This document shows positions 5,376-28,333 of a DNA stretch of 64,000 nucleotides, piece by piece. How positions within the stretch are numbered: position 1 is the stretch's first letter; each line of letters opens with the position of its first letter. Location of the stretch: assembly GCF_988243305.1 (NCBI RefSeq), contig NZ_OZ547136.1, one strand, 5' to 3'. The position numbers and the translations under genes are program-made. The notes under the pieces were generated by a model. That model did not search any database. It had not been told where the DNA came from and saw only the letters and a list, made by a program, of their open reading frames with translations.

Positions 5376-5590
5376 TATTCACCTCTCGCAGCCTTGCGCT
5401 TATCTTCTTTAATCTTGAAATAAAGGTTTGTCAGGTACGTCAGCAGGCCAAATACCAGGCTACCCAGCACACCTATTGCTGCCCACTGTGAGGGCGTGAC
5501 TTTATCGAGCAGCTGTAAAAACCAGTAGCCAGCACTGCCTGCGGAGGTGCCGTAGGCAATGCCTGTTGAAATTTTGTCCATGGATTTCAT
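5375..5590 (-). CDS. Class II holin (pinholin, S21 type) with dual-start motif
   Basis: 71-aa product [71 protein letters not shown]; two TM segments, Met1/Met4 dual start; track ORF extends upstream from a non-ATG start. Confidence 0.85.
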
Positions 5591-9035: not shown

Positions 9036-9409
9036 TTTTTGACCTGCTCTTCATGCATTATGGGGTAAATCTTCACCCCCAGACGTCCACCAGATACTGG
9101 CTGACCACGAACGATATTGATTTCATCAAACTGCTCATCGTCCATTAACACTCCCGCATGCGTCAGCGCATCCAGCGGTGCTTTCAGGATATTGTCCAGG
9201 TCGCGACGACGCTTATCCGGTGGCTCTGCAATCACCTTTATCGCCAGCCTTCCGGACAGGCTTAATTTCAGCCGCTGCTGGCGAACAATAAGCGCCACAG
9301 CCCGGCGATAACGCTTTCCCTCCTCCGAGATAAAATATGTGCTGCCACGGCGTCGCCAGTAAGTGTTCACCGTCGGCGGGTAAGGTAAAACCAAATCTAT
9401 GAGCATCAC
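9032..9409 (-). CDS. rusA: Holliday junction resolvase RusA
   Basis: 125-aa ORF ...LPYPPTVNTYWRRRG...DKRRRDLDNILKAPLDALTHAGVLMDDEQ... matches RusA motifs. Confidence 0.8.
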   Translation of the reverse strand: MMLIDLVLPYPPTVNTYWRRRGSTYFISEEGKRYRRAVALIVRQQRLKLSLSGRLAIKVIAEPPDKRRRDLDNILKAPLDALTHAGVLMDDEQFDEINIVRGQPVSGGRLGVKIYPIMHEEQVKK

Positions 9410-9418
9410 TCACCTCTT

Positions 9419-10468
9419 TTACCCAAGCACGCCAGTTGCAAAGGCGTGATCAAGAAAACGAAAAATTAAATCAACCTGAGAACCATGCTTTTCTTCGAAC
9501 GCCAGAGGATCCGCATGAAGCTCGTTGTGATGCTCCCGACACAGCGGTAGCGTGAAAATATCGTGAGATTTTGTCCCCATTCCGCCCTGACCATGACCAA
9601 TCAGGTGATGGGGATCGTCGGCTGGCTTACCACAATACGCACACGGCTGTGTCTTCACCCAGCGTGTGTATTTCTCGTTAACCCAGCGGCGACGTTTAGG
9701 TCGTTTCATGAAAGATTCCGGAGACTCAGGATCAACGGCAATGCTGACCACCGTCTTTTCCTGTGGTGGGTTCTGTTGCTGGTGGGCGTGAGGCAGCGGC
9801 GCAAGATTTTTTGTGCGCTGTTTCAGTATGCTGGTGGCGGTCTGCTCTCCCGGTACGATGTCGCTTTCACGGTACATTGAGCGGATTTTTTCCGCACGCA
9901 ACCCCAGCGAACGACGTAATACCGCTTCCGGTAGCGCGTCCGCCACCTGATTGCGGACCGCCCACCAGGATAATTCAGCCAGCGATAATTCCCGCTCCTG
10001 TGTGCCATTCATTGCGTGACGAATGACGTCAATCATCCATGCTGACAAGTTTTGGTGAGCAAGTTGCTCAAGTGATTCGGAGGTCTGGTCACGCAACTGG
10101 TTGTCGCAGTGCCAGCACAACACCATTGCGCCGGTACCATAACGGTGAATGACGGTTTCGCTGTGATGATAATCGCCGTGTGGCCACTGGCAGGATTTAA
10201 TATGGCGCAACAGCCAGTCAGACAATGCACCAGCACCACCAGCAGCACGAATCACCCGTGCGTTACTGAAAAACGGCAGCAATGTTTTGTCTTCCACCAG
10301 CGGCTGGCGAACGGCAGGAACGCCCCCGGACGGCAGATTACGCATGCTTTTCGGTTCCGGCTCCACCAGTACCCGGGTATTGTGGAATACCGGCATGGAT
10401 TCACGGCCCGGCTTAACGATCACCAGCCCGAGTTCCGGTACCAGAACAGGTCGAAGTAATACTCGCAC
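9419..10468 (-). CDS. DUF968 (YdfU-like) protein with C-terminal HNH-like Cys/His motif
   Basis: 349-aa ORF; C-terminal CAYCGKPADDPHHLIGHGQGGMGTKSHDIFTLPLCREHHNELH. Confidence 0.6.
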   Translation of the reverse strand: MRVLLRPVLVPELGLVIVKPGRESMPVFHNTRVLVEPEPKSMRNLPSGGVPAVRQPLVEDKTLLPFFSNARVIRAAGGAGALSDWLLRHIKSCQWPHGDYHHSETVIHRYGTGAMVLCWHCDNQLRDQTSESLEQLAHQNLSAWMIDVIRHAMNGTQERELSLAELSWWAVRNQVADALPEAVLRRSLGLRAEKIRSMYRESDIVPGEQTATSILKQRTKNLAPLPHAHQQQNPPQEKTVVSIAVDPESPESFMKRPKRRRWVNEKYTRWVKTQPCAYCGKPADDPHHLIGHGQGGMGTKSHDIFTLPLCREHHNELHADPLAFEEKHGSQVDLIFRFLDHAFATGVLG

Positions 10469-10469
10469 G

Positions 10470-10748
10470 TTACCTCCAGATGCGTTGCTGGAATGTGCGG
10501 GACGGACGCGGTGATCGTTCGGAGTAAGGAAGCCTGACGGAGATTATCCAGTGACGATAATCGAGGCTGAGGGCTTTCTTAATCTCGTATCCGTGTCTGC
10601 GGTAGCACTGAATTAGCCACTCGGCCTGTTCTTCAGTGCATGGGGGATGCTGGAACCAGTCAGATTTGAAAGTGCGGGAACGCCGCCCGTGCCTGCTGGC
10701 AAAGACGGCAGAATCATCAGAATTGTGTAATTTGGTATCGTGCGCCAT
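10470..10748 (-). CDS. Small nin-region protein (Rem-like); start assumed at internal Met
   Basis: MAHDTKLHNSDDSAVFASRHGRRSRTFKSDWFQHPPCTEEQAEWLIQCYRRHGYEIKKALSLDYRHWII...; family from memory. Confidence 0.4.
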   Translation of the reverse strand: MAHDTKLHNSDDSAVFASRHGRRSRTFKSDWFQHPPCTEEQAEWLIQCYRRHGYEIKKALSLDYRHWIISVRLPYSERSPRPSRTFQQRIWR

Positions 10749-10915
10749 CGGTTGTCTCTGCTGGCGCAGCAGGTGCCAGTTGTTCAGGCTGGCGTGCGAA
10801 TTGTAAACCAGAATGCCAGGAAAAAACAAAACCCGCCGAAGCGGGTTACGTGCGGGTGCGTTGAGGATGCCTGACACATCAGAGGTGGCGAGGGATTTCT
10901 CCCTCGCCGGGTCTC

Positions 10916-11071
10916 TTACTCCTCAGGTTCGTAAACTGTGAAGACAGCGACCTCCGTCTGGCCGGTTCGGATTCGTACCTCGCAGAGGTCTTTCCTCGTT
11001 ACCAGTGCCGTCACTATGACGGTTAAACAGATGACGATCAGGGCGATTAACATCGCCTTTTGCTGCTTCAT
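10916..11071 (-). CDS. hok: Hok/Gef family type I toxin (HokD/RelF-like)
   Basis: 51-aa product MKQQKAMLIALIVICLTVIVTALVTRKDLCEVRIRTGQTEVAVFTVYEPEE; single TM helix and conserved Cys; track ORF carries an in-frame 19-codon upstream extension. Confidence 0.9.
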   Translation of the reverse strand: MKQQKAMLIALIVICLTVIVTALVTRKDLCEVRIRTGQTEVAVFTVYEPEE

Positions 11072-11791
11072 AGCCTGCTTCTCCTTGCCTTTCGGCACGT
11101 AAGAGGCTAACCTAGATTTGCCGTTCATAGATTGAGCCTCAGATTAATGTTAAGCGTCTTGCAGGACGCGTAATGTTAACTGGGGCTTTTCTCTATCTGC
11201 CTTTGGTGTTCATGCCTGAGGCAGATAGCCTCAAGCACCCGCAGCAATTCTACTTAACTCCCGTCACCTCGCCAATATAAAATCAATCAGAAAGGCGATC
11301 CATAAGAACAACAGCAAGACAATAAATTGCCATTACAGCCGCAATAGCTAGCGCACATTTGAGAACCAGCACGACAACCTCCTGTATTGGACGTACACCA
11401 GTTCTGATAAATATGAGGCTGTCTCATCATTGATTCAATATAACTATTGGGTATAGTTTCTGTGATTTTGTTCTGTAGAAATGGAACACAACAACCAGTC
11501 ACCACCAGCACTTCTTTAAATACGCCAAGTCCGACGCAAGCTAACCTTCTAGTCCGCTTTGAGCGAGGAGCGGACCAAACCCGGCCAACTGACTCTTAAA
11601 GGGGCCGCAGGAATTTTTCGTCTGAACTTTCGAAGCTCCTCTCCCTGAAGACAGAAAACTTCTGTGTGCTGTGGGAATATTGAATCTTTGCATTAGATAT
11701 AAATAATTTTATCCCGCCTGAAGTTTACATTATTTTATTTATCTGTTTTTCTAAATCAGACTGCACTCCTTACTTAAATCAGGAGCCAGTC

Positions 11792-12991
11792 ATGCCATTT
11801 GTTATTTATGTGTTTACTATCAGTGCCTTTGCGCTCGGACTCGCGGAATTTGTCCCCATTGGGCTGACAGACGTTATGGCTCAGGGGTTGTGTGTGGGTG
11901 TGGAGCAGACCGGGGCAGCGGTTACAACCTATGCACTGGGGGCAACGTTCGCGGCACCCGTACTGTCTGCGCTGACAGCAAGCTGGAGCCGGAAAAATGT
12001 AATGCTTACAACTGCCGTTGTGTTTACTGCCGGTAGTCTGGCGGCCGCGTTTGCAGCCACATTACCTCAGCTCCTGTTAGCGCGGTTCATTGCTGGTCTG
12101 GGACACGGCCTGTTTCTGGCTGCGGCATCCAGTACCGCAGCTCGTCTTGCTGGACCGGGTAAAGCAGGCAGAGCGGTGGCTGTGGTATTTGGTGGCTTTA
12201 CTCTGGCGATGGCAATCGGCGTACCGCTGAGTACATGGTTGGGGGGGGTGGTCTCATGGCGTCCAGTTCTCGGCGCTATTGCCGCTTTTGGCGCGTTCGG
12301 ATTCCTTGGACTGTTGTTCGGTATGAAAGATCCCGTACGCAGCGTGCCCGGTGAACATAGTGACTCAGCAATGCAGAATATCGGCATGCTGTTTAACCGT
12401 AAGTTGCTGGCCGGCGCGCTGGTTACGGTGCTGGCGTATGCAGGCTCGTTTACGGCTTACACCTTTATCGCACCTATTCTGACGCAGGTGACAGGGGTTA
12501 CCGGAGCAAAGGTGAGTCTGTTTATGCTGGTTTACGGTATTACAGCTGCGGTAGGTAATATTCTTGGTGGGAAACTTACCGACAGCATGGGGGTTAATCG
12601 TGCCAATATACTCATCATTAGCGGCATTGTTGTTGTCGTGCTTGGTATGTGGCTGCTGTCATCCTCACCGGTGAGCATGGGCATTCTGGTTGCGCTGCTG
12701 GGTATGGTGACATTTGCCGCAGTGCCGGCACTGCAGGCCCGTCTGATTGGTGTCGCTGAGCAACATGCTCCTCATGCGCATGGTGTTGCTGCCGGCCTGA
12801 ATATTGCGGGCTTCAACTCAGGTATAGCGCTGGGATCAGTACTGGGCAGCATTACTATAAGCCACGCCGGTATCGTGTATACCGGTATCAGCGGTGCGAT
12901 TGTTTCTCTGCTCGGCCTGCTGTTGCTGCTTGCACAAATCCGTCGCAGCCACAGTCGTAAATTTCAACAGGTTAAAATCGTAGGCCAGTAA
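11792..12991 (+). CDS. MFS transporter (12-TM)
   Basis: 399-aa highly hydrophobic ORF MPFVIYVFTISAFALGLAEFVPIGLTDVMAQ... with MFS-like repeat organisation. Confidence 0.7.
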   Translation: MPFVIYVFTISAFALGLAEFVPIGLTDVMAQGLCVGVEQTGAAVTTYALGATFAAPVLSALTASWSRKNVMLTTAVVFTAGSLAAAFAATLPQLLLARFIAGLGHGLFLAAASSTAARLAGPGKAGRAVAVVFGGFTLAMAIGVPLSTWLGGVVSWRPVLGAIAAFGAFGFLGLLFGMKDPVRSVPGEHSDSAMQNIGMLFNRKLLAGALVTVLAYAGSFTAYTFIAPILTQVTGVTGAKVSLFMLVYGITAAVGNILGGKLTDSMGVNRANILIISGIVVVVLGMWLLSSSPVSMGILVALLGMVTFAAVPALQARLIGVAEQHAPHAHGVAAGLNIAGFNSGIALGSVLGSITISHAGIVYTGISGAIVSLLGLLLLLAQIRRSHSRKFQQVKIVGQ

Positions 12992-13002
12992 AGGGAGGTT
13001 AT

Positions 13003-13695
13003 ATGCTTACCCGTGAAAATATGCTTAATGGCACATTTGTCAGGGTGCATGAAGCGCTGCTCCCGGCGAATATGCTCTGGGACGCTGAAAAAATACGCGC
13101 ATCAATGAACTCTACTCTGGAGGAGCGCCCGACGGGTGCTCCTTTCTGGATATTTGCCTACGGGTCATTGATGTGGAATCCCGTGCTGGCAATTGAAGAA
13201 ATGCAACGGGCCCGTCTGAAAGGATGGCAGCGCAGTTTCTGCATTCGTTTGATATCCGGACGAGCGACTCCTGATGTCCCCGGCAGGATGTTATCGCTCG
13301 ACGAAGGTGGAATTACCGAAGGTATTGCGTTCAGACTGCCGGAATCGACTCTTATTAATGAGCTGGAAATTGTCTGGACGCGCGAGATGATAACCGGTCT
13401 TTACCGTCCGGTCTGGGCAGACGTTTCGCTAGGAAACGGTGAGGAAATTCAGGCGCTGGCTTTCGTATCAGACAGACTGCATCCGCATTATGAACAGGAC
13501 AATCTTACAGCGACCGTAGCGTTGAGCATCGCATCTGCCCGTGGAGACATTGGCACGAATGCAGATTATGTATGGAAACTGCAGGCCACTCTGGGTGCGT
13601 TGGGAATACGGGATGATTACGTGAGTGAACTGGCCCTTGCTCTGCATGAGGCTCCCTGTAACGATAAACTTCATCAGCGAGGCGCTTCACTATGA
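13003..13695 (+). CDS. ChaC-like gamma-glutamylcyclotransferase family protein
   Basis: 230-aa ORF with FWIFAYGSLMWNP motif and overall similarity to ChaC. Confidence 0.7.
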   Translation: MLTRENMLNGTFVRVHEALLPANMLWDAEKIRASMNSTLEERPTGAPFWIFAYGSLMWNPVLAIEEMQRARLKGWQRSFCIRLISGRATPDVPGRMLSLDEGGITEGIAFRLPESTLINELEIVWTREMITGLYRPVWADVSLGNGEEIQALAFVSDRLHPHYEQDNLTATVALSIASARGDIGTNADYVWKLQATLGALGIRDDYVSELALALHEAPCNDKLHQRGASL

Positions 13696-14573
13696 GCCAT
13701 CTGAGCCATCTGCGAACGTTTCTTGAGGCCTATCGCTCTGGCTCCTTTTCAAAGGCGGCAGAACTACTGGGCATCACTCAGCCCGCGGCGTCACAGCATA
13801 TCCAGTCTCTTGAGACTCTGGTTGGTAAGCGTCTGTTTATCAGGCAGGCCAGAGGCGTGACGGCAACCGAAGCTGCGGATGAGCTTGCCCGCTCAGTTTC
13901 ACCCTTCATTGATGGTCTGGAAGAAAAGCTGTCCTCTTTCCGGTCAGGCTCTGTACACGGGGGAACAATTAATCTGGCAGGACCGCCAGATTTTATTCAT
14001 TCCCGGCTTGGGACAGTAATGGCTCCACTAATGAAGGAGGGGTATCGCCTACGCTTTCATACCGGCAATAAGCAACGTATTTATTCCCTTTTGCATGACG
14101 GGAGCGCCGATCTCGCTGTTACCGCATCTATGCCTGATGACCGTCTGTACGGCTATGCACATCTACTGACTGAACGCATGCTCCTTGTTCATGCTCCCGC
14201 CATGTCAGAGATCATCGGATCAGAACCTGGTGCTGAAACGCTTGCCTCATTACCGCTGATTGCTTATGACGAAGAGTTGCCACTGATTAGAGCGCTCTGG
14301 GCCTCCATGTTTCAGAGAGCCCCTGAGATGCAGGCTACATTCACCATTCCGGATTTACGTATTATCCGCGACTTGGTCTGTGACGGCCACGGGTGGACAG
14401 TGCTGCCGGATTATCACTGTGACAATGACCTGAAAAGTGGTCGCCTGATTTCAGTGACACCTGCAGACCTCGCTCCGACTAATCATCTTTATCTGGTCTG
14501 GAACAAAAGGACGGCTAATAACAGCCGAACCGCCTATGTTCGGGATTACATTCTTAAAACGTTTCCGCGTTGA
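13692..14573 (+). CDS. LysR-family transcriptional regulator
   Basis: 293-aa ORF MSHLSHLRTFLEAYRSGSFSKAAELLGITQPAASQHIQSLE... (LysR HTH), overlaps ChaC-like stop by 4 nt. Confidence 0.85.
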   Translation: MSHLSHLRTFLEAYRSGSFSKAAELLGITQPAASQHIQSLETLVGKRLFIRQARGVTATEAADELARSVSPFIDGLEEKLSSFRSGSVHGGTINLAGPPDFIHSRLGTVMAPLMKEGYRLRFHTGNKQRIYSLLHDGSADLAVTASMPDDRLYGYAHLLTERMLLVHAPAMSEIIGSEPGAETLASLPLIAYDEELPLIRALWASMFQRAPEMQATFTIPDLRIIRDLVCDGHGWTVLPDYHCDNDLKSGRLISVTPADLAPTNHLYLVWNKRTANNSRTAYVRDYILKTFPR

Positions 14574-14625
14574 TGTTTGAAACGGATGATTGGCGATGTG
14601 TATCATAAGTTACGTATGTCCGCTT

Positions 14626-14641
14626 CTGGCACAAAGCAGAC
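14626..14641 (+). repeat. 16-17 bp direct repeat, copy 1 (ctggcacaaagcagac), flanking the membrane-protein/BCCT module
   Basis: Near-identical copy cttggcacaaagcggac at 18298-18314. Confidence 0.5.
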
Positions 14642-14703
14642 GCCCACTCTCACGCGAATGCTTTGCCCTTGACTTGCCAACAACCGTATCGCTTGCTCCG
14701 CAA

Positions 14704-15996
14704 CTATGGTTTTTTATTAGAACCTTCGCCACTAAATAAATTATAATAAATTGATTTTATTAGATATCTGTCAGAATCTATATGGTCAGCACGAGTAGCA
14801 TGCTCTAATGTTTCAAATGCTAGGGTTTGTGCGGCTTCAGCAAAAATTCCAGGCCAACCCTTACTCAGCATCGACAGTCCTTTAAGTACCCTTATCTGAA
14901 TTTCCCTCATACTGGCACCATCGCGCGCAACAGGTGAGAAAAAGTCTTCAAGTAGATCGTTATTCTGAAGTGGTGCAACATGTACAGAAGGATATTTCAC
15001 TTCTATTTCATCAGATTTATTCTGCGCGTAAGCGGAAAGTATACGTACACCTCTGCCAATGACATCAATGGCGGTTCCAGGATCGTTCACTGCGGGGGAA
15101 AGGGCTCGGCAGGCTATTTCGGCCATGACGCTAAGACAAAATCGGGGGTCCTGAGCAAATGAACGTACATCCGAGACAATAATCGTCTCAAGTAAATCGG
15201 TGCTGATTGATGACTCCTGGCCCTGACTCAGGTACAAAACTGGCGTGGACGGATGTATGAAACTGCCCGGCTGCGCCACGAGGTATACATGACGGGGATC
15301 ATTGGTCAGCAGCTTGCTGAGTTTCACCATATCAACATATTCAACATAGCCAATCTTTTTCGGATAAACTGCAACCGTTCCTTTCGGCTGTTCATTGTTC
15401 TCAAGCCATGGATATCCGCCGAGACAGGGATTTCTTGCTCTCGCAATAAATGTTTCGATGGCCGCCTGTTCTACTTTTGCCGTTGTCTCACCAACCCTCC
15501 CCAGAGAGGTCAAATGCTGTATCCAGCGAAGCAATGTGATGAGGATTAAGGCAATGACAACCAGTGTTACAATGAATAAAATGACTCTCCCCCTTTCTCC
15601 ATAAGCTCCCATATTGAGGGCAATAATCCCTACCAGACTGAAGAGAAAAGAACCGATGAAGGTGGCCAGTACATTTTGTGTGGTGACGTCTTCAACAACT
15701 AAACGAGTAGCTCTGGGAGTCACATTAGTAGTGGCTGAACCGTAGGCTGTGACCATGATGCTCAGCGAAAATGTGGTCACTGCCAGCATACTCGATGCCA
15801 GTATGTTCAGAATGTTATCGACTGCTTCCGCACCAACCTTCACGGAAACCGACTCAGGTATCATTGATTTAAAAAGAATTGATAAAAGGGCCGTTATTAT
15901 TGCGACAATTGCGAATAACGTTGCCCTGAACCATAGTTTTTTAAATGTCTGCTTCAGCATCCATTTCCAGCGTGAAATCATTCTGCATTCCCTCAT
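14704..15996 (-). CDS. Polytopic inner-membrane protein, family uncertain (possibly DUF2254-like)
   Basis: 430-aa ORF with N-terminal TM helices and a soluble C-terminal region; start codon uncertain. Confidence 0.5.
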   Translation of the reverse strand: MRECRMISRWKWMLKQTFKKLWFRATLFAIVAIITALLSILFKSMIPESVSVKVGAEAVDNILNILASSMLAVTTFSLSIMVTAYGSATTNVTPRATRLVVEDVTTQNVLATFIGSFLFSLVGIIALNMGAYGERGRVILFIVTLVVIALILITLLRWIQHLTSLGRVGETTAKVEQAAIETFIARARNPCLGGYPWLENNEQPKGTVAVYPKKIGYVEYVDMVKLSKLLTNDPRHVYLVAQPGSFIHPSTPVLYLSQGQESSISTDLLETIIVSDVRSFAQDPRFCLSVMAEIACRALSPAVNDPGTAIDVIGRGVRILSAYAQNKSDEIEVKYPSVHVAPLQNNDLLEDFFSPVARDGASMREIQIRVLKGLSMLSKGWPGIFAEAAQTLAFETLEHATRADHIDSDRYLIKSIYYNLFSGEGSNKKP

Positions 15997-16044
15997 ATTG
16001 CAGCCGGGATAAATAAATGCCGCCTCTGTGGCGGCATGTTGCTG

Positions 16045-18048
16045 TTAACGAACCAGATGCAGGAAGTGCAGGTGTTTTTCGTACTGGTCCAGTATGTCAT
16101 TAATCAGCTGTTCCTGATTCCAGCCCATTACATCATAATTTTGGCCGCCCTCTTTGAGATAGACTTCAGCGCGATAATATCGATGTTGTTCACTCTGCTG
16201 CTCATCATTATCCAGCGCAGCGAGCGCGAAGGTCGGTGAGTTATACCCGCGAAGCCTCACTTCATATATATAATTCAGCTCGTTGCCCAAATCGACTTCA
16301 AGGCGAATACGATCCTCGGCGGCGTCACTGATGTGGCTTATCGTTCCCTGCTTGTTAAGTTCCTCCTGAACCAGCGTCATGGCGGGTTGGATAATGTCGT
16401 CCATAAAACGTTTCACAAGAGAGCGCTTCGGCAAATACGCGATATTGCGTAACCTTCTCTGCCAGGGAATTGGGTTACGTGCAGCCGTAGGAGCAATAGT
16501 CGCCATGCTAAGGCTTTCACGCTTGGTCAAATCCCGACGCAGGGCTTTTAACAGTCCGTATATGGATATTAATAAGATAACTGAGAAGGGCAATGCACTC
16601 GCTATCGTTACGGTTTGCAACGCACTCAGCCCCCCTGCGATCAGCAGGGCAATAGCAACAACGCCCATGAGCGATGCCCAGAAAATTCGCTGCCAGACGG
16701 GCGTGTTTGCCACCCCACCTGATGCCAGAGTATCCACAACCATTGCCCCCGAATCAGCAGACGTTACAAAGAAGACGATGACCATCGCCATTGCAATGAA
16801 TGACAGCACGGAAGAGAACGGGAAATGCTCCAGGAAATTAAACAGGGCAAGCGCAACATCCTGCTGAACGGTATTGGCGAGGTCAGTGGCGCCCTGGTTC
16901 ATGATGAGATAGATGGCGCTGTTTCCAAACACCGTCATCCACATGAGCGTAAAGCCGGCGGGAACAAACAACACGCCAGTCACGAACTCACGAATTGTCC
17001 TGCCGCGGGAAACGCGTGCAATGAACATACCTACAAACGGCGACCATGAAAGCCACCATCCCCAGTATAATAATGTCCAGCCCCCCAGCCAGTTGCTCGA
17101 CTTGGGTTCATACGCGTAAAGGTTGAACGTTTTACTCACCAGTTCCGACAGATAACCACCCGTATTTTCCACAAATGACTTCAGCAGAAGCACAGTGGGA
17201 CCCAGGCACAAGACCAGCGCCAGGAGCAACACCGCCAGGCCCAGATTAAGCTCAGACAGGATGCGTATTCCCTTGTCCAGGCCGGACACCACCGAAATCG
17301 TCGCTAACCCCGTGATGACCACGATCAAAATGACCTGTACCGTTTCATTGATGGGCACGCCGAAAAGATGGTTCAAACCGGCATTCACCTGCAATACACC
17401 GTAACCCAGTGATGTTGCAACGCCAAAGACAGTGCCTATCACGGCGAAGATATCAACCGCGTGGCCTATAGGCCCGTAAATGCGATCGCCGATAATGGGA
17501 TAGAGCGCAGAACGCAGCGTTAAAGGCAGACCGTGACGGTAACTGAAAAAGGCCAGAATCAGCGCCACGATGGCATAAATTGCCCATGCGTGCAGACCCC
17601 AGTGGAAGAACGTCAGGCGCATGGCTTCCTTCGCTGCCGCAACGGTCTCTGGAGTGCCGACAGGTGGCGAAAGATAATGCATCACAGGTTCGGCAACGCC
17701 AAAGAACATCAGGCCGATCCCCATCCCTGCCGAAAAAAGCATCGCGAACCAGGAGTGGTAGCTGAAATCAGGCTGCGCATGGTCTGGGCCCAGCTTTATA
17801 TCACCGTAACGTGAGAGTCCAAGGAACGTGACGCTCAGTAAAATCAGGGCCACAGCAAGTATGTAGAACCAGCTGGCATTCGTGAAGATTTGTTGCTGAA
17901 GTAGTTTAAAATTTTTGTCGGCGACATCCGGGAATACGGCGGCAAAGGCGACAAGAAGGAAAATTAGCAAAGCAGATGTAAAGAATACCGCTTTGTTAAT
18001 CTGGCTTGTAGACTTCTTTGGGGTTGTATCATTTTCACTCATAATCAT
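16045..18048 (-). CDS. BCCT-family transporter (BetT-like choline/betaine transporter paralog)
   Basis: 667-aa ORF with BCCT hallmarks ...WTLLYWGWWLSWSPFVGMFIARVSRGRTIREF... and a BetT-like C-terminal cytoplasmic extension. Confidence 0.8.
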   Translation of the reverse strand: MIMSENDTTPKKSTSQINKAVFFTSALLIFLLVAFAAVFPDVADKNFKLLQQQIFTNASWFYILAVALILLSVTFLGLSRYGDIKLGPDHAQPDFSYHSWFAMLFSAGMGIGLMFFGVAEPVMHYLSPPVGTPETVAAAKEAMRLTFFHWGLHAWAIYAIVALILAFFSYRHGLPLTLRSALYPIIGDRIYGPIGHAVDIFAVIGTVFGVATSLGYGVLQVNAGLNHLFGVPINETVQVILIVVITGLATISVVSGLDKGIRILSELNLGLAVLLLALVLCLGPTVLLLKSFVENTGGYLSELVSKTFNLYAYEPKSSNWLGGWTLLYWGWWLSWSPFVGMFIARVSRGRTIREFVTGVLFVPAGFTLMWMTVFGNSAIYLIMNQGATDLANTVQQDVALALFNFLEHFPFSSVLSFIAMAMVIVFFVTSADSGAMVVDTLASGGVANTPVWQRIFWASLMGVVAIALLIAGGLSALQTVTIASALPFSVILLISIYGLLKALRRDLTKRESLSMATIAPTAARNPIPWQRRLRNIAYLPKRSLVKRFMDDIIQPAMTLVQEELNKQGTISHISDAAEDRIRLEVDLGNELNYIYEVRLRGYNSPTFALAALDNDEQQSEQHRYYRAEVYLKEGGQNYDVMGWNQEQLINDILDQYEKHLHFLHLVR

Positions 18049-18382: not shown

Positions 18383-18805
18383 TCACTTCAATAAATACCG
18401 AACATCCCCCTGATAAAACGACAATATGCGCTGCATAACTTCGCTCTTCCGGCACTCGCGACAGATTATGTTTAGGCGACTGTCGTAGCGACGTATTTCT
18501 CCGTCAGGTAATGACCAGATAAGGTCCGGATCAACCACAACCGGTTTCTTCAGCTTTGCCCTCGATAATTTTTTGCGGGCATTTTGCCAGTCTTTACGAG
18601 CCTGTTCAGACGGGAATAACCCGTAGCCAGAATTGTATACATCGCCACTGGCAACCAGCTCTCTGGCCAGAACGCTCATCAGATATCTTGTTGCCCCAGT
18701 TTTAGCTTCCAGTTGTCGTAACGTCTCGCGCCCACTCTGGCGTACGAGTTCAAGAACCTGCCCTTTAATTTTTTCCCGCTCTTCTTGTGTAAAAACTTTT
18801 GCCAC
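18383..18805 (-). CDS. Hypothetical replication-module protein (lambda P position)
   Basis: 140-aa ORF MAKVFTQEEREKIKGQVLELVRQSGRETLRQLEAKTGATRYLM...; immediately downstream of the initiator gene. Confidence 0.4.
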   Translation of the reverse strand: MAKVFTQEEREKIKGQVLELVRQSGRETLRQLEAKTGATRYLMSVLARELVASGDVYNSGYGLFPSEQARKDWQNARKKLSRAKLKKPVVVDPDLIWSLPDGEIRRYDSRLNIICRECRKSEVMQRILSFYQGDVRYLLK

Positions 18806-18845
18806 AAGCCCTCCTGAAAATTACCTCATGACCAGAAATTAACAC

Positions 18846-19934
18846 TTACCCCCTGAAGCCCGGCGGAATTTCGTTATCCGGTTCAGAAATATGATTCACA
18901 CAACGCTGGTTGTTCGTGCCGCTTACCTGGAGCAACCAGGGGTTCTCAAAATTCCGGTCCGGTCCAAAAAACGTCGTCGCTCGCTGAACAAATTCCGTTC
19001 CCGTTTTCCCGGTAGCCGCCAAGTATCTTGCGTAACGCCTCACGCCATCCAGCATGGCCTCTGGTGGCACCCCCTCGCGTAATCTGGCCTTCCAGGCACT
19101 GAAAGCGGATTTCTTCGGGTTTGCCCCAGCACGCAACGGGTACTCCCGCCAGACCTGTTCGAACACATCCGGATAATCCACTCGTCCCACAGACTGCCCG
19201 GTGTTTTCCGGGACTACCCGATCGGCTTCCCGCTGAATGGCGGAATCGGCTTCAGGCTGCTGCAGTTGGTGTGATTGCTCCGCCCTTGCGGTCATCACCT
19301 GCTGCACAGCGCCCGAATCGGCTTTCAGCGCATACGCTGAATCGGCTTCCGGTGTCGTGCCTGCTGGCTGACCAAGATTGACGGTCTGAACATCCCCTGC
19401 CTGGTTCGTGGCGTTTTTTACGCCATGGACCATAGTGTTTTGATCTTCTTGATCTGTATCTTTATCTGTATCTTTATCTGTATCTTTATCTGTCGTGACT
19501 CGTCGTGACATGTGCGTGACATTTCGTGACGCGCCGTGACAATCGCCATTTTGTTCCCGCTTTCTTTCCCTCTCTCGCTGCGCCCTCTTGCGCTCTGCAG
19601 GAGATTTTGCGGTTTGCGAAATATTGCCGTTGTCCTCTTTAAGCACCTGGCGTTTTTCCCATCCAGTGATTAAATCACCATCAAGTACCCGCCCCTGCAT
19701 CGTCTGCAAAATTGAATCAATTACCTCTTCTGTCACGTCGAGCGCACTTGCCAAATCTTCTGTCGTGACATCAATGTGACCTCGCGTGACATTTCGTGAC
19801 GCGCTCACCAGGAGGTGGATATACACTGCCATCACTGTTGCAATTGGCTGCCCTGACACCCTGGCAATTGTTCGCCACTTAGGGTCATTTGGCATGTCAT
19901 GCCATAATCTGAGCCAGGCGTTAGCCATACTCAC
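18846..19934 (-). CDS. Replication initiator (O-like) containing the origin iterons
   Basis: 362-aa ORF; internal DKDT tandem repeat and two clusters of CGTGAC iterons inside the coding sequence, as in lambda O/ori. Confidence 0.6.
   Translation of the reverse strand: MSMANAWLRLWHDMPNDPKWRTIARVSGQPIATVMAVYIHLLVSASRNVTRGHIDVTTEDLASALDVTEEVIDSILQTMQGRVLDGDLITGWEKRQVLKEDNGNISQTAKSPAERKRAQRERERKREQNGDCHGASRNVTHMSRRVTTDKDTDKDTDKDTDQEDQNTMVHGVKNATNQAGDVQTVNLGQPAGTTPEADSAYALKADSGAVQQVMTARAEQSHQLQQPEADSAIQREADRVVPENTGQSVGRVDYPDVFEQVWREYPLRAGANPKKSAFSAWKARLREGVPPEAMLDGVRRYARYLAATGKTGTEFVQRATTFFGPDRNFENPWLLQVSGTNNQRCVNHISEPDNEIPPGFRG
19452..19540. repeat. Origin-like repeat cluster 1: ~3.5 tandem copies of a 12-bp unit (atctgtatcttt) followed by five CGTGAC iterons at 10-11 bp spacing
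   Basis: Read directly at 19441-19540. Confidence 0.7.
19764..19800. repeat. Origin-like repeat cluster 2: four (C)GTGAC iterons; shares an exact 21-bp block (gcgtgacatttcgtgacgcgc) with cluster 1
   Basis: Read directly at 19761-19810; an inverted copy gtcacg lies at ~19732. Confidence 0.65.
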
Positions 19935-19999
19935 CTCTTTTGATACCGAATCTTTTTACTCACAAATTGCCGGAAGTGATCCGGTATGAATATTGCGAG

Positions 20000-20425
20000 T
20001 CAATGCACAGCCACAATATTTCCTGCAGGGCCACCACGATTCATCTGGTTGAAACCAGCGATCGCCACTGCGACAAAATCATCAGCGTCTCTCACCAGTC
20101 GTTCCCGCGTCTCCACTAGTTCCCGAAAATAGGCTGAGCTATGGCTGCGCATTCGGGCCACCAGCAGAGGTGGCATTGCTTTTTCGATAGCTGGTAACAA
20201 CGCCTGAATTTTTTCAACTGCATCAGGGGTGTCTTTCTCTACCCAGCGGAAAATTTTCTGGGTATTGCGAGCCAGGGCTTCCGGATGGCTGTCGTCATAC
20301 AGTTCTGGGAACGTCATACCCAGTTCAAAATAAGCCCTGGTTATTTCAGCTGCCGGAACTTTTTCACCGTCCGGATGCGCCCAGGCATTCATCGCCATGC
20401 GGATGTGTTCATGCTTGATTTTCAT
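20000..20425 (-). CDS. YdaT-like protein (CII-position gene of rac-type immunity region)
   Basis: 141-aa ORF MKIKHEHIRMAMNAWAHPDGEKVPAAEITRAYFELGMTFPELYDD...; follows the cro-like gene. Confidence 0.5.
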   Translation of the reverse strand: MKIKHEHIRMAMNAWAHPDGEKVPAAEITRAYFELGMTFPELYDDSHPEALARNTQKIFRWVEKDTPDAVEKIQALLPAIEKAMPPLLVARMRSHSSAYFRELVETRERLVRDADDFVAVAIAGFNQMNRGGPAGNIVAVH

Positions 20426-20690
20426 GAATCAAGCTCCTAGAAAGTGGTTGTGTTAACATTTTGGTATCTTCCAGCTCGGGCCAAATATTCATCCAATCAA
20501 AAGGCCTTAGTTGCTGACGTGTAACTTCACCATTACTGGCTCGCTCAATAAGGACACATAACGATGCCCCTAACACTTGACCTTTACTCAATGCCTTTCT
20601 TAGATAACCGATGCTGGTACCACACTCGCATGCAAACATACGCTGTTCATCTGACGAAAGAGAATTGAGAAATATTCTTAATTCTTCCAT
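20409..20690 (-). CDS. Cro-like HTH regulator (YdaS family)
   Basis: 93-aa ORF with HTH ...CGTSIGYLRKALSKGQ...; divergent from repressor gene across operator region. Confidence 0.6.
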   Translation of the reverse strand: MEELRIFLNSLSSDEQRMFACECGTSIGYLRKALSKGQVLGASLCVLIERASNGEVTRQQLRPFDWMNIWPELEDTKMLTQPLSRSLIHENQA

Positions 20691-20790: not shown

Positions 20791-21210
20791 ATGGACAAAT
20801 ATGAATTTAGACGACAGCAACTCATCAAAATTCGTGATGAGAAATGCGATGGTAAAGCGGTTAACGTGGCCAGAAAGATCGGGCGCGAGCCTTCTTATGT
20901 ATCAAGAATGTTGTACCCAGAGGGGAAAAAGGGAAAAAAACGGATCGCTGATGATATGGTGGAGATTATCGAAGAGTCCTTTGGGTTACCCCGGGGATGG
21001 ATGGATGGTATCGTTTCATCATCAACGAACACAGCCTCCAGTTATGAAACAAGGGTTCTAACGCCACGACAACGTATTTTTTTAGATCTCTTAGACGAAC
21101 TGCCAGAAAGTGAAGCGGATAACTTATTAAAAACTCTTGAAGAGAAAAAACAGTATTACAATATGATCTACGAAGAAATCCGTAAAAAGAAAGCACAAAA
21201 CGCATCATAG
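20791..21210 (+). CDS. Putative prophage repressor (HTH protein, cI position)
   Basis: 139-aa ORF MDKYEFRRQQLIKIRDEKCDGKAVNVARKIGREPSYVSRML...; divergent to cro-like gene, flanked by operator-like palindromes. Confidence 0.55.
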   Translation: MDKYEFRRQQLIKIRDEKCDGKAVNVARKIGREPSYVSRMLYPEGKKGKKRIADDMVEIIEESFGLPRGWMDGIVSSSTNTASSYETRVLTPRQRIFLDLLDELPESEADNLLKTLEEKKQYYNMIYEEIRKKKAQNAS

Positions 21211-23015: not shown

Positions 23016-25487
23016 ATGAGTAAAGTCTTTATTTGCGCCGCTATTCCTGACGAACTGGCAACAAGGGAAGAAGGCGCTGTGGCTGTAGCCACAGCCATTG
23101 AAGCTGGCGACGAACGCCGTGCTCGAGCAAAATTTCACTGGCAATTCCTGGAACATTATCCGGCTGCTCAGGACTGCGCTTATAAATTTATTGTCTGCGA
23201 GGATAAACCTGGCATACCCCGCCCAGCCCTCGATTCATGGGATGCTGAATATATGCAGGAAAACCGCTGGGATGAGGATTCTGCTTCTTTTGTTCCGGTT
23301 GAGACTGAATCCGATCCGATGAACGTCACTTTTGACAAGCTGGCCCCTGAAGTACAGAACGCTGTCATGGTTAAGTTCGACACATGTGAAAACATCACCG
23401 TTGATATGATTATTAGCGCGCAGGAATTGTTGCAGGAAGACATGGCAACATTCGACGGACATATCGTTGAAGCGTTGATGAAAATGCCAGAAGTTAACGC
23501 CATGTATCCGGAGCTTAAGTTGCACGCCATTGGGTGGGTTAAGCATAAATGTATTCCTAGTGCTAAATGGCCCGAAATTCAGGCAGAGATGCGCATCTGG
23601 AAAAAACGTCGCGAAGGTGAACGCAAGGAAACCGGAAAATACACGTCTGTTGTTGATCTCGCCCGCGCCAGAACCAATCAACAGTACACTGAAAATTCAA
23701 CAGGAAAAATCTGCCCGGTCATTGCTGCCATTCATCGCGAATACAAGCAGACATGGAAAACACTGGATGACGAACTGGCCTACGCTCTCTGGCCTGGTGA
23801 TGTGGGTGCCGGAAACATTGACGGCAGCATCCATCGCTGGGCAAAAAAAGAAGTTATCGACAACGACCGCGAAGACTGGAAGCGTATCTCGGCATCAATG
23901 CGCAAACAGCCTGATGCCCTTCGCTACGACCGCCAAACTATTTTTGGCCTTGTCCGTGAGCGTCCGATCGACATTCACAAAGATCCCGTAGCACTGAACA
24001 AATATATCTGCGAATACCTGACGACAAAGGGCGCGTTTGAGAATGAAGAAACAGACCTGGGCACTGTTGATGTTCTCCAGTCATCAGAAACACAAACTGA
24101 TGCAGTGGAAACTGAGGTATCTGATATCCCAAAAAATGAAACCGCGCCGGAAGCTGAACCATCTGTAGAGCGTGAGGGGCCGTTCTATTTCCTCTTCGCA
24201 GATAAGGACGGAGAAAAATACGGTCGCGCAAACAAACTTTCTGGTCTGGATAAGGCACTGGCTGCTGGCGCCACTGAAATCACAAAAGAAGAATATTTTG
24301 CCCGAAAAAATGGCACATACACGGGCTTACCGCAAAATGTAGATACCGCTGAAGATTCAGAACAACCAGAGCCGATAAAAGTTACCGCTGACGAAGTAAA
24401 CAAAATTATGCAGGCAGCCAATATCAGCCAGCCTGACGCCGATAAGTTGCTTGCTGCATCACGTGGTGAATTTGTTGAAGGGATTAGTGACCCGAATGAT
24501 CCGAAATGGGTTAAGGGGATCCAGACCCGCGATTCTGTGAACCAGAACCAGCATGAATCGGAACGGAACTACCAAAAAGCGGAACAAAACAGTCCAAATG
24601 CGTTACAAAACGAGCCAGAAACGAAACAGCCTGAACCAGTGGCGCAACAGGAAGTGGAAAAAGCCTGCACCGCCTGCGGTCAGACCGGCGGCGGCAACTG
24701 CCCTGATTGTGGCGCGGTGATGGGCGACGCAACATACCAAGAAACATTCGATGAAGAGTATCAGGTTGAAGTTCAGGAAGATGATCCGGAGGAAATGGAA
24801 GGCGCTGAACATCCACACAAGGAGAACACTGGCGGCAATCAGCATCACAATAGCGATAATGAAACTGGCGAGACGGCAGATCACCCAATTAAGGTGAACG
24901 GTCATCACGAAATCACATCCACCAGCAGGACGTGTGACCATCTAATGATCGACCTTGAAACCATGGGAAAAAATCCTGATGCCCCGATCATCTCAATAGG
25001 TGCAATATTTTTCGATCCGCAAACCGGAGATATGGGACCGGAATTTAGTAAGACTATCGATCTGGAAACTGCTGGCGGAGTCATTGATCGGGACACCATT
25101 AAATGGTGGCTTAAGCAATCACGCGAAGCGCAATCTGCCATTATGACCGATGAAATCCCGTTAGATGATGCACTGTTACAATTGCGGGAATTTATCGACG
25201 AAAACTCCGGTGAATTTTTTGTTCATGTCTGGGGAAATGGAGCCAACTTCGACAACACGATTTTGCGCCGTTCATACGAACGGCAGGGGATCCCCTGCCC
25301 GTGGCGTTACTACAACGATCGCGATGTACGCACAATCGTTGAGCTGGGGAAAGCCATAGACTTCGATGCCAGAACGGCTATTCCATTCGAAGGTGAGCGC
25401 CATAATGCACTTGATGACGCCCGTTACCAGGCAAAATACGTTTCAGTTATCTGGCAAAAACTGATCCCGAGTCAGGCTGATTCTTAA
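23016..25487 (+). CDS. Large early-operon protein with C-terminal DnaQ-like (DEDDh) 3'-5' exonuclease domain, in the recE position
   Basis: 823-aa ORF; C-terminal ~180 aa carry Exo motifs MIDLETMG (D-x-E), VWGNGANFDNTIL, HNALDDARYQAKY (H-x-A-L-x-D-A); central acidic linker with CxxC...CxxC; no recT-like gene follows. Confidence 0.6.
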   Translation: MSKVFICAAIPDELATREEGAVAVATAIEAGDERRARAKFHWQFLEHYPAAQDCAYKFIVCEDKPGIPRPALDSWDAEYMQENRWDEDSASFVPVETESDPMNVTFDKLAPEVQNAVMVKFDTCENITVDMIISAQELLQEDMATFDGHIVEALMKMPEVNAMYPELKLHAIGWVKHKCIPSAKWPEIQAEMRIWKKRREGERKETGKYTSVVDLARARTNQQYTENSTGKICPVIAAIHREYKQTWKTLDDELAYALWPGDVGAGNIDGSIHRWAKKEVIDNDREDWKRISASMRKQPDALRYDRQTIFGLVRERPIDIHKDPVALNKYICEYLTTKGAFENEETDLGTVDVLQSSETQTDAVETEVSDIPKNETAPEAEPSVEREGPFYFLFADKDGEKYGRANKLSGLDKALAAGATEITKEEYFARKNGTYTGLPQNVDTAEDSEQPEPIKVTADEVNKIMQAANISQPDADKLLAASRGEFVEGISDPNDPKWVKGIQTRDSVNQNQHESERNYQKAEQNSPNALQNEPETKQPEPVAQQEVEKACTACGQTGGGNCPDCGAVMGDATYQETFDEEYQVEVQEDDPEEMEGAEHPHKENTGGNQHHNSDNETGETADHPIKVNGHHEITSTSRTCDHLMIDLETMGKNPDAPIISIGAIFFDPQTGDMGPEFSKTIDLETAGGVIDRDTIKWWLKQSREAQSAIMTDEIPLDDALLQLREFIDENSGEFFVHVWGNGANFDNTILRRSYERQGIPCPWRYYNDRDVRTIVELGKAIDFDARTAIPFEGERHNALDDARYQAKYVSVIWQKLIPSQADS

Positions 25488-25559: not shown

Positions 25560-25811
25560 ATGAGCGAAGTAATCATGATTGTCTCTCCCGGCAAATGGGT
25601 ATCCGAAGAGCAGTTAATTGCGCTGAAAGGAATAAAAAAAGGTACGTTAAAAAAGGCCCGGGAAAAATCGTTTATGGAAGGAAGGGAATATAAGCATGTC
25701 GCTCATGACGGTATGCCATGGGATAACAGCCCATGCTTTTACAACCTGGAAGAAATTGATCGCTGGATTGAGCGCCAGGCATCAGCGAGACCAAGACGTC
25801 ATCTTACTTGA
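25560..25811 (+). CDS. Excisionase-like protein (xis position); start may be an internal Met
   Basis: 83-aa ORF immediately upstream of integrase. Confidence 0.5.
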   Translation: MSEVIMIVSPGKWVSEEQLIALKGIKKGTLKKAREKSFMEGREYKHVAHDGMPWDNSPCFYNLEEIDRWIERQASARPRRHLT

Positions 25812-25845: not shown

Positions 25846-27126
25846 ATGAAATATCCGACAGGCGTGGAAAACCATGGAGGGAAATTACGTATCTGGTTTG
25901 TTTATAAAGGCGTAAGAGTCAGGGAAAATCTGGGGGTTCCTGACACAGCAAAAAACAGGCGCGTTGCAGGTGAACTACGCGCCTCTGTTTGTTACGCAAT
26001 AAAAACTGGTGTTTTCGACTATGCAAAACAGTTTCCCTCCTCACGCAATCTGGAAAAATTTGGTGAGGCCCGACAAGATTTAACCATAAAAGAACTGGCT
26101 GAAAAATTTCTGGCACTGAAAGAAACTGAAGTCGCAAAAACATCACTCAACACATACCGTGCCGTCATCAAAAATATCCTGAGCATAATCGGTGAAAAAA
26201 ATCTTGCCTCATCGATTAATAAAGAAAAATTACTGGAGGTTCGTAAAGAGCTACTGACTGGATACCAGATCCCCAAAAGTAACTATATTGTTACACAACC
26301 AGGGAGATCGGCTGTAACTGTAAATAATTACATGACAAATCTTAACGCCGTGTTCCAGTTTGGTGTTGATAACGGTTACCTGGCAGATAACCCGTTTAAG
26401 GGGATCTCGCCATTAAAGGAATCAAGAACCATTCCGGATCCTCTTTCGCGGGAGGAATTCATCCGTCTTATCGATGAGTGCAGAAATCAGCAAGCCAAAA
26501 ATTTATGGTGTGTTTCTGTTTATACTGGCGTTCGCCCTGGTGAGCTGTGTGCACTTGGATGGGAGGACATAGATCTGAAAAATGGAACAATGATGATCAG
26601 GAGAAATTTAGCAAAAGACCGTTTCACGGTACCAAAAACACAGGCGGGAACCAATCGGGTCATTCATCTTATTAAGCCAGCAATCGACGCTCTCCGGAGT
26701 CAGATGACATTAACGAGACTGAGCAAAGAGCATATCATTGATGTTCACCTCAGAGAGTATGGCAGAACAGAAAAACATAAATGCACCTTTGTTTTTCAAC
26801 CTGAAGTGTCAGCGAGAGTAAAAAATTATGGTGACCATTTTACCGTTGACTCAATAAGGCAGATGTGGGACGCAGCGATAAAACGTGCCGGACTCCGCCA
26901 TCGAAAATCATATCAGTCGAGACATACTTATGCCTGCTGGTCGCTGACTGCTGGTGCTAACCCGGCATTTATAGCAAACCAGATGGGCCATGCAGATGCG
27001 CAAATGGTATTTCAGGTATACGGAAAATGGATGTCTGAAAACAATAATGCACAGGTAGCTTTGTTAAATACACAGTTAAGCGAGTTTGCCCCAACCATGC
27101 CCCATAACGAAGCAATGAAAAATTAA
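25846..27126 (+). CDS. Tyrosine integrase (lambda family, rac IntR-like)
   Basis: MKYPTGVENHGGKLRIWFVYKGVRVRENLGVPDTAKNRRVAGELRASVCYAIKTGVFDYAK...; catalytic region with ...HTYACWSLTAGANPAFIANQMGHAD...VYGKWM; track ORF starts 5 codons earlier. Confidence 0.9.
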   Translation: MKYPTGVENHGGKLRIWFVYKGVRVRENLGVPDTAKNRRVAGELRASVCYAIKTGVFDYAKQFPSSRNLEKFGEARQDLTIKELAEKFLALKETEVAKTSLNTYRAVIKNILSIIGEKNLASSINKEKLLEVRKELLTGYQIPKSNYIVTQPGRSAVTVNNYMTNLNAVFQFGVDNGYLADNPFKGISPLKESRTIPDPLSREEFIRLIDECRNQQAKNLWCVSVYTGVRPGELCALGWEDIDLKNGTMMIRRNLAKDRFTVPKTQAGTNRVIHLIKPAIDALRSQMTLTRLSKEHIIDVHLREYGRTEKHKCTFVFQPEVSARVKNYGDHFTVDSIRQMWDAAIKRAGLRHRKSYQSRHTYACWSLTAGANPAFIANQMGHADAQMVFQVYGKWMSENNNAQVALLNTQLSEFAPTMPHNEAMKN

Positions 27127-27313
27127 TTTAATATTTATCAAATAGTTGACACGTATGACTCTTGAAATCCATAAATTCAAGCGCAGTGCCCAGCCATCCC
27201 GATACTGCTGCTTTCACCAAATCCTTAGTGCTTCTTTCGTGTTTTTCTATTGTCATAATGGTTATCTCTAAAAAAGAGGTAAGATGCGTACTACTTACTC
27301 GCCGTTATTGGTA

Positions 27314-28333
27314 TTATTCAGAAAAAGTGAGTAAGACTTTGCAGCAATGTTTTTGATCCTGTTCAAATAAACTAATGGCATCAGCAACATGCTGGAAATC
27401 AAACGTATGGGTAATTAATTTTTCTGGTTTAATTAACCCTTTACTTAACCAGTCGATAACGACCGGAAATTTATTTGCATTTAAGCGTGAAGAGAAAATA
27501 GAGAGTTCTTTTCCGGTAATTCCTTGCTGAATCACTTCAGACGGTTCACTGGAGAAGCCCATCAATACAATACGTGCCGCTGGAGAAGCCAGCGTTACGG
27601 CTTCTTTCAGGATTGAAGGATGACAAGCCGCATCGATAATTAATGTCGGCTTTATGCCTTTTTCAGCGAAAATCTCGCCAAGCGGTGTCTGGCTGTTATT
27701 AATCGCCCAGTCTGCCCCGCTCTCTTTCGCTTTTTCCAGTCGTTCATCAATGCGATCGGCAACAATCACATTCTTAACGTTATAGACGCCTTTTAATACC
27801 TGAACGATCGTCAGGCCGATTGGACCGGCACCGTAAACCAGAACGGTATCATTTTCAGTCGGTTGACCATGACCGGTAACGTTAGCCGCAATGGTAAAAG
27901 GTTCGATCATCACCGCATATTGATCGGCCACTGCTTCAGGAATTTTCCACGCATTTTTTGCCGGCACCACGGCATATTCACTGAAACCACCGTCAGCGTG
28001 CACACCTAATACAGCCAGTGTCGTACAAACGTTCGGTTTACCTATAGAGCACGGATAGCAATGCCCACAGCTGACCACCGGATCGACTGCAACACGTTCA
28101 CCGACTCTGGCGCTTTCCACGCCTTCACCCACTGCATCAATGACGCCAAAGAATTCATGACCAATGACGCGCGGATATTTCGCAAAAGGATTATGCCCAC
28201 GATAAATATGGCTATCTGAACCACAAATTCCGGCAAGTTTTACTTTTACTCGTACTTCACCCGCTGACGGGGTGGGTATTTCACGTTCGACAATCGCCAG
28301 TTGATTCGGTTTTTCAATTAATATGCTTTTCAT
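27314..28333 (-). CDS. rspB: Zinc-binding alcohol dehydrogenase family protein RspB
   Basis: MKSILIEKPNQLAIVEREIPTPSAGEVRVKVKLAGICGSDSHIYRGHNPFAKYPRVIGHEF...; recalled as E. coli RspB. Confidence 0.9.
   Translation of the reverse strand: MKSILIEKPNQLAIVEREIPTPSAGEVRVKVKLAGICGSDSHIYRGHNPFAKYPRVIGHEFFGVIDAVGEGVESARVGERVAVDPVVSCGHCYPCSIGKPNVCTTLAVLGVHADGGFSEYAVVPAKNAWKIPEAVADQYAVMIEPFTIAANVTGHGQPTENDTVLVYGAGPIGLTIVQVLKGVYNVKNVIVADRIDERLEKAKESGADWAINNSQTPLGEIFAEKGIKPTLIIDAACHPSILKEAVTLASPAARIVLMGFSSEPSEVIQQGITGKELSIFSSRLNANKFPVVIDWLSKGLIKPEKLITHTFDFQHVADAISLFEQDQKHCCKVLLTFSE

Follow-up and report, generated by a model that had tools for sequence, protein, structure and literature searches.

Analysis of the window (a 64,000-nucleotide stretch of contig NZ_OZ547136.1, assembly GCF_988243305.1) revealed one end of a prophage. 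In all likelihood this is the integrase-proximal junction (B-O-P', attL in lambda terms) of a prophage that is lambda-like and belongs to the Qin / mEp460 / Tritos lineage; the prophage would have entered the host gene ydfJ by a mechanism following the lambda Int paradigm. The features at this junction, with the evidence for each, are as follows.

25560..25811, plus strand: excisionase, 83 amino acids (Pfam DUF1233, putative excisionase, E = 1.6e-31; PHROG 539, excisionase)
25846..27126, plus strand: integrase, predicted lambda-Int-type tyrosine recombinase, 426 amino acids (ORF, Pfam, PHROG, alignment)
27127..27163, no strand assigned: phage-derived P' arm, from the int stop to the core (comparison with the attP of mEp460_ev081)
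27164..27174, no strand assigned: att core TTATGGATTTC (four-way comparison of attB, attP and junctions)
27164..27256, minus strand: 5' fragment of ydfJ, 31 native codons, equivalent to ynfP of K-12 (translation compared with the intact YdfJ of strain 05-3629)
27314..28333, minus strand: rspB, the flanking host gene (ORF list, annotation of a relative)

The attachment site was mapped by a four-way comparison of attB (the empty ydfJ of strain 05-3629), attP (downstream of int in mEp460_ev081), the window junction and the far junction (from 94EC). This comparison revealed an 11-bp core, TTATGGATTTC, at positions 27164-27174 when read on the minus strand (the sense of ydfJ), and thus inside the interval 27127-27313 where the original prediction had placed it. 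The sequence around the core is GCGCTTGAATTTATGGATTTCCAGTTATATTC in attB and CACCTGTGAATTATGGATTTCAAGAGTCATACG in attP. The window junction consists of the attB left arm, the core and the attP right arm, the far junction of the attP left arm, the core and the attB right arm, and the four sequences fit as exact reciprocal recombinants around TTATGGATTTC. An extended but imperfect identity covers 18/19 bp (27161-27179), TGAATT(T)ATGGATTTC(C/A)AG, with one indel and one mismatch, and BLAST homology of the window to three phage genomes stops at 27179. The gene ydfJ is a published phage integration site, and the mapped identity agrees with the '18- or 19-bp att sequence' described for ydfJ prophages (PPydfJ; Nakamura et al. 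2021, PMC8112680). The same core was present in the attP of PhiR42_1, at both annotated ends of Qin in K-12 and at the far junctions of five close relatives. These relatives are 99.7-99.8% identical to the prophage, and it is in them, not in the window's own genome, that the far copy of the expected direct repeat was read; taking the window junction and these far junctions together, the core is duplicated at the two prophage ends.

Comparison of the phage side of the junction (window positions 27000-27179, comprising the 3' end of int, the arm and the core) with the attP of mEp460_ev081 identified differences at 4 of 180 nucleotides, and the 30 nucleotides on the phage side of the core were identical. 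A motif in the P' arm, CAAATAGTTGA at approximately 27136-27146, occurs again in attP beyond the core and is a candidate arm-type site. A repeat search of attP for arm-type sites of Int yielded only a weak recurring CA(A/G)ATAGTTG, which was insufficient to claim as a set of binding sites.

The stop codon of int (TAA, 27124-27126) and that of rspB (27314-27316, minus strand) are separated by 187 bp, in agreement with the approximately 190 bp given originally. What the original prediction had missed is that this interval, besides the att site, holds the 5' end of ydfJ. The ydfJ start codon lies at 27256 on the minus strand and opens MTIEKHERSTKDLVKAAVSGWLGTALEFMDF; the reading frame ends at 27128 and fuses 31 native codons to 11 phage-derived codons (KSHTCQLFDKY, followed by a stop). 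Its first 31 residues are those of YdfJ, an MFS transporter, as encoded by the uninterrupted ydfJ of strain 05-3629. In the K-12 annotation the same fragment is named ynfP, and the remainder of ydfJ lies at the other end of Qin. Because the first 31 codons adjoin rspB and the rest is found at the other Qin end in K-12, the prophage splits ydfJ, and the gap is an interrupted host gene rather than plain intergenic DNA.

Following the lambda Int paradigm, Int, equipped with an arm-binding N-terminal domain and a catalytic domain, would have recombined an attP carrying the core TTATGGATTTC with ydfJ at codons 28-31. Integration would have left the promoter and first 31 codons of ydfJ beside rspB and moved the remaining codons to the far prophage end. 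Excision, in which Int and the neighbouring excisionase would act on the cores of both junctions, would restore ydfJ. We infer that this prophage still excises and makes virions. The arrangement resembles that of lambda in the arm-binding and catalytic tyrosine-recombinase domains of Int, in the position of xis immediately upstream, in the orientation of int towards the att site and in the short core identity between attP and attB. It differs from lambda, which inserts between gal and bio, in that the target lies inside a coding gene and in that the first catalytic His of Int is replaced by Tyr.

The reading frame of the integrase (25846-27126, plus strand) encodes 426 amino acids without an internal stop, bearing out the original description of the gene as full length. 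An alternative ATG is located at 25831, and a purine-rich stretch (GAGAGAAG) lies a few bases 5' of the 25846 start only. We used 25846, the RefSeq-style start that gives 426 amino acids, while the Pfam residue numbers refer to the 431-residue reading. Pfam searches identified an N-terminal arm-type DNA-binding domain (Arm-DNA-bind_2, PF12167; E = 5.6e-24, full profile 1-65) and the catalytic domain (Phage_integrase, PF00589; E = 7.9e-18, residues 207-397 of the 431-residue reading), and the PHROG matches were PHROG 1 and PHROG 216, both integrase. The best match among PDB sequences was Tn1549 Int (E = 6e-9), and lambda Int was not recovered with an E-value cut-off of 0.01. The putative catalytic residues, assigned by aligning Int with Tn1549 Int (entry 6emy), are R230, K264, R359, H382 and the nucleophile Y392. 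On these sequence features Int is classified as a lambda-Int-type tyrosine recombinase with an arm-binding domain.

One position departs from the family pattern. At the first position of the H-x-x-R motif, Int has Y356 in place of the His of most family members. Neither the Int of mEp460_ev081 nor that of 94EC differs from the window Int at this position. Compared with the mEp460_ev081 protein, Int has 2 changes in 426 residues (E211A and H301Y; 99.5% identity), and it is 99.1% identical to the integrases of the isolated phages Tritos, HannyBb and PhiR42_1. Because Int is nearly identical to the integrases of viable phages, Tyr356 is read as a substitution common to integrases at least 99.1% identical to it and not as a lesion. 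Int looks functional, and integration and Xis-dependent excision are predicted for it from the viable temperate phages whose integrases are at least 99.1% identical.

The remainder of the prophage within the window comprises the following features.

1-504, minus strand: portal gene, cut by the window start
1..3338, minus strand: packaging region, with W (501-707), terminase A (704-2629), Nu1 (2604-3149) and an exact lambda cosN, GGGCGGCGACCT (3327-3338)
4420..5590, minus strand: lysis cassette, with holin S, lysozyme R, Rz and the embedded Rz1 lipoprotein (4479-4661)
8214..11240, minus strand: Q antiterminator (8214-9035), RusA, DUF968 protein, a 92-residue ORF, and hokD with sok
11792..18048, no strand assigned: non-phage cargo, with an MFS transporter, gamma-glutamylcyclotransferase, LysR regulator, DUF2254 protein and BCCT transporter
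18383..20690, minus strand: early right region, with a DUF977/Ren-like protein (18383-18805), replication initiator (18846-19934), cII/YdaT-like protein (20000-20425) and Cro-like regulator (20409-20690)
20791..21210, plus strand: prophage repressor, 139 amino acids
21476..22922, plus strand: dicBF operon of Qin type, with ydfA, ydfB, ydfC, the DicF sRNA (22320-22371), dicB and ydfD (annotation of a 99.8% identical relative)
23016..25487, plus strand: 823-residue protein with a C-terminal 3'-5' exonuclease domain (Pfam Rv2179c-like)

Within the window, the 25 phage coding sequences that were checked all lacked an internal stop and had the same length as in the RefSeq annotation of a 99.8% identical relative. 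The cos site, terminase, lysis cassette, late antiterminator, replication initiator, repressor and Cro were all intact, as were the ORFs of the dicBF operon, in which DicF was matched by Rfam at 76.7 bits. The 823-residue exonuclease gene is intact in the window, in contrast to 94EC, where it carries an internal stop, and to K-12, where it is the truncated pseudogene ydfE. The packaging stretch (1..3338) was 98.4% identical to phages Turner, PhiR11_1 and mEp332, and the replication initiator was full length compared with PHROG 3729 and shared 97% identity with its counterparts in phages Tritos and Evi. The modules had been described originally as complete; this stands for lysis (S, R, Rz and Rz1) and for the replication initiator, and cosN, Nu1, A and W are intact, but the window, which begins within the portal gene, does not allow the packaging module to be called complete, and the head and tail genes lie outside it.

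The 6.3-kb cargo lies in a variable slot flanked by hokD and the ren-like gene; it was not found in the three phage genomes compared. We considered whether insertion of the cargo had destroyed the replication module and rejected this, since the viable phages Tritos and mEp460_ev081 share the layout of an initiator plus a DUF977 gene with a variable slot beyond.

The closest free relatives of the integrase end are phages that have been isolated. Tritos (prophage 3 of the AIEC strain LF82) shares window positions 21307-27179 at 98.1% DNA identity, a segment that covers dicBF, the exonuclease gene, xis, int and the attP arm. It differs in its repressor (only 39% identical), in its type of head genes, in its Q and lysis modules, in the absence of the transporter cargo and by one base change in the attP core (TTATGCATTTC). 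Tritos is released spontaneously at about 2.8e6 genomes/mL, formed a plaque on MG1655 hsdR- and has been imaged as a siphovirus (PMC9928086). mEp460_ev081, which comes from infant faeces and is described as functional and temperate (PMC10448788), has the Q-to-holin region in common with the window at 96.8%. PhiR42_1, which is essentially K-12 Qin in complete and isolated form, matches the packaging region at 98.3%. The 11-bp attP core of both phages is identical to that of the window, whereas both have DicA-type immunity with Rem and different replication genes.

We also compared the prophage with Qin of K-12. The MG1655 annotation marks intQ as a pseudogene, and an adjoining IS2E remnant stands in place of approximately its first 40 codons, which supports the original statement that the K-12 integrase is a pseudogene. 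When translated, intQ is similar to the window Int from about residue 41 (GELRxSVCYAIKTG) to the natural stop, at approximately 99% identity and with no further lesion; the start codon and most of the arm-binding domain have therefore been lost in K-12. The two prophages share the insertion point in ydfJ adjoining rspB, with the junction at codon 31 and the same core at both ends, and the dicBF operon (located between the immunity region and the exonuclease gene), hokD and ydfU-type genes. K-12 differs in having lost most of the exonuclease gene to an IS2 remnant, in addition to the 5' end of int, and in lacking nearly all head and tail genes, with a length of 20.5 kb compared with approximately 48.9 kb in the closest relatives of the window prophage. 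It also has relBE/flxA where the window has the transporter cargo, and DicA/DicC immunity with the antirepressor Rem. This DicA/Rem immunity was not found in the window prophage, and the immunity specificity therefore differs from that of Qin.

To assess the half of the prophage that lies beyond the window, we examined its relatives among 5426 complete E. coli genomes. The best match to the prophage was 99.8% identical; for window positions 39-64 kb the best was only 98.2% at 93% coverage. Positions 1-27200 were collinear at 99.83% identity with a single 48.85-kb prophage of 94EC that carries one copy of the core at each end. The length of the 94EC prophage, taken from its coordinates, is close to that of the 48.5-kb lambda genome. 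In the five relatives at 99.7-99.8% identity the lambda-like gene set is full, running from the portal gene through to tail fibre assembly, and beyond it lie the far att and ydfJ'. From these relatives a structurally complete, though unproven, prophage is likely for this genome.

A functional phage is the reading we favour, and the alternative that survives best against it is that the prophage is 'grounded', that is, defective through lesions outside the window or in its regulation despite an intact int and intact window genes, and persisting as a chromosomal island only. Some of the relatives point this way, with a nonsense codon at position 235 of head gene C in 94EC and an IS1 approximately 280 bp from the far att core in VTB96775v, and Qin of K-12 illustrates decay within the lineage. 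In addition, at least 80% of the exact 25-kb window arrangement was present in only 41 of the 5426 genomes, a distribution compatible with vertical inheritance rather than active spread. Against this, no pseudogene was flagged in the 22-kb head and tail region of four of the five relatives (AHS8C65RI, VTB96775v, AR436 and EC5502). All window phage genes checked are intact, even the exonuclease gene, which is disrupted in 94EC and in K-12, and every module has a counterpart in a plaque-forming phage at 94-98% identity. On balance we regard a grounded prophage as unlikely, while giving it more weight than the other alternatives.

The original prediction was of an inducible phage that would respond to mitomycin C, which corresponds to a classical lambdoid phage whose repressor undergoes RecA-dependent cleavage followed by lysis. 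The lambda-like architecture, with late genes, cos and terminase of lambda type, is consistent with this. In contrast, the 139-residue repressor gave no Pfam match of any kind, and hence no S24 peptidase domain. A search for LexA boxes (CTGT-N8-ACAG) found a sole match in the prophage, inside the MFS gene of the cargo, which was taken as chance, and none near the repressor. DicA of the related K-12 Qin is controlled by the antirepressor Rem, the inducing signal being unknown (PMC10448788). When LF82 was treated with ciprofloxacin, other prophages were induced and Tritos was not among them; trimethoprim cut Tritos production 3.4-fold (PMC9928086). A classical SOS-inducible phage is thus improbable, and SOS inducibility of the prophage is doubtful. 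No antirepressor was recognised in the window prophage; Rem-like proteins were sought without success, and the 92-residue ORF in the position of rem had no similarity to Rem.

The repressor is distinct from DicA, the alignment between the two being confined to 46 C-terminal residues (33% identity). Over the N-terminal domain it shares 65% identity with mEp043 cI, and the C-terminal part is similar to Tritos CI as well as to DicA. No sequenced free phage was found to encode this exact repressor; the closest hit was the N-terminal one, at 65%. Because the N-terminal domain resembles mEp043 cI and the C-terminal part Tritos CI, these alignments define a mosaic immunity type that has no close match among sequenced free phages. 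Induction of the prophage, if any, is probably spontaneous or antirepressor-driven rather than the result of RecA cleavage of the repressor. Since the repressor has no peptidase domain, no LexA box lies nearby and Tritos is not SOS-induced, mitomycin C may be the wrong test. A negative mitomycin C result would not show that the prophage is dead, and spontaneous formation of attP and attB would be a fairer test.

A further alternative is that the integrase is foreign to the adjacent phage genes, a relic of an earlier element within a tandem or mosaic prophage cluster at ydfJ; its intactness would then say nothing of its neighbours. Clusters of two to four prophages at ydfJ in O157:H7 offer a precedent (PMC8112680), but this reading is very improbable given the collinearity with a single 94EC prophage bearing one core per end, and given that Tritos, mEp460_ev081 and PhiR42_1, all free phages, have a contiguous int-xis-exo-dicB block with the same gene order.

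The junction itself is widespread. The 2.2-kb segment comprising xis, int, ydfJ' and rspB was present at 80% coverage or more in 2309 of the 5426 complete E. coli genomes (approximately 43%), and an empty attB was identified in 2009. The original prediction had stressed an intact phage at a site where K-12 keeps a remnant. The intact int, the att site and the decay of intQ support that description, but the situation is not unusual, with the junction in about 43% of genomes and ydfJ a published site (PMC8112680). An intact phage where K-12 has a remnant is expected and already documented; the feature is real but ordinary. Intact Qin-type phages at ydfJ are common in natural E. coli and have been isolated (Tritos, mEp460_ev081 and PhiR42_1), and current understanding is unchanged. 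Beyond annotation the feature matters little: the interval from int to rspB holds a split ydfJ rather than spacer DNA, the att core is fixed to 11 bp, and mitomycin C is probably an unfair test of viability. We tentatively raise the possibility of a currently mobile phage that would spread its 6.3-kb host-type cargo, in the hokD/ren moron slot, between E. coli lineages via ydfJ, with an immunity type absent among isolated phages and an induction signal other than SOS.

The final 15 kb of the window contain a second mobile element, for which tqsA was the insertion site. It carries integrase, replication, capsid and terminase genes and no tail genes, and by this gene content it resembles a capsid-forming phage-inducible island.

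Two stretches flanking the hokD locus of the prophage were analyzed, one on each side:

11792-18048, which spans 6.3 kb within the prophage and consists of non-phage genes, bordered by hokD/sok on one side and a DUF977/ren-like gene on the other
10470-10748, a 92-amino-acid ORF assigned to PHROG 1212, located between hokD and ydfU

The larger of these carries genes for a BCCT transporter, a DUF2254 protein, a LysR regulator, a gamma-glutamylcyclotransferase and an MFS transporter. At least 80% of this cargo block was present in 295 of the 5426 complete E. coli genomes searched, and the block was not found in the three phage genomes compared with the window (Tritos, mEp460_ev081 and PhiR42_1). 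Analysis of the half comprising the BCCT and DUF2254 genes revealed a paralogue of approximately 94% identity at another place in many E. coli genomes. In other strains, the slot between hokD and the ren-like gene was occupied by AbiH or HTH regulators.

The 92-amino-acid ORF occupies the position at which the K-12 remnant prophage Qin instead carries the antirepressor gene rem. No sequence similarity was found between Rem and the product of this ORF. We speculate that it could represent an analogous antirepressor for the immunity type of this prophage.

RNA genes were also identified between the lysis genes and Q (6927-7117 and 7814-8070), namely one match to the STnc100 sRNA (114 bits) and two tRNA genes. 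The tRNA pair consisted of Arg-tct and a tRNA with a CAT anticodon, the latter assigned to Met by ARAGORN and to Ile by RefSeq in a relative. Comparison of att cores revealed a single-base difference between the attP of phage Tritos (locus L008, 24830-24840; TTATGCATTTC) and the sequence shared by the window, K-12, mEp460_ev081 and PhiR42_1 (TTATGGATTTC).

In the close E. coli relative 94EC, head gene C (S49 protease/Nu3 scaffold; locus L001, 10003-11322), which corresponds to the region upstream of window position 1, was interrupted at position 235 by a nonsense codon (RETL*SRMD, compared with RETLQSRMD in PhiR42_1). An in-frame Met codon lies three codons after this stop and may be the start of Nu3. 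No pseudogene flag was present on gene C in the four other relatives (AHS8C65RI, VTB96775v, AR436 and EC5502).

A second mobile element was observed at approximately 48800-64000, inserted in tqsA (ydgG). This element encodes an integrase, an Icd-like protein, a RepA-family helicase, SSB, PerC and an HNH endonuclease, together with a major capsid protein, an HK97 protease, a portal, head closure and connector proteins, and small and large terminases, both P27-type. No tail genes were identified within its approximate boundaries in the window, and the element resembles a phage-inducible chromosomal island of the capsid-forming kind. Its best relative was 14EC001 (98.2% identity, 93% coverage).
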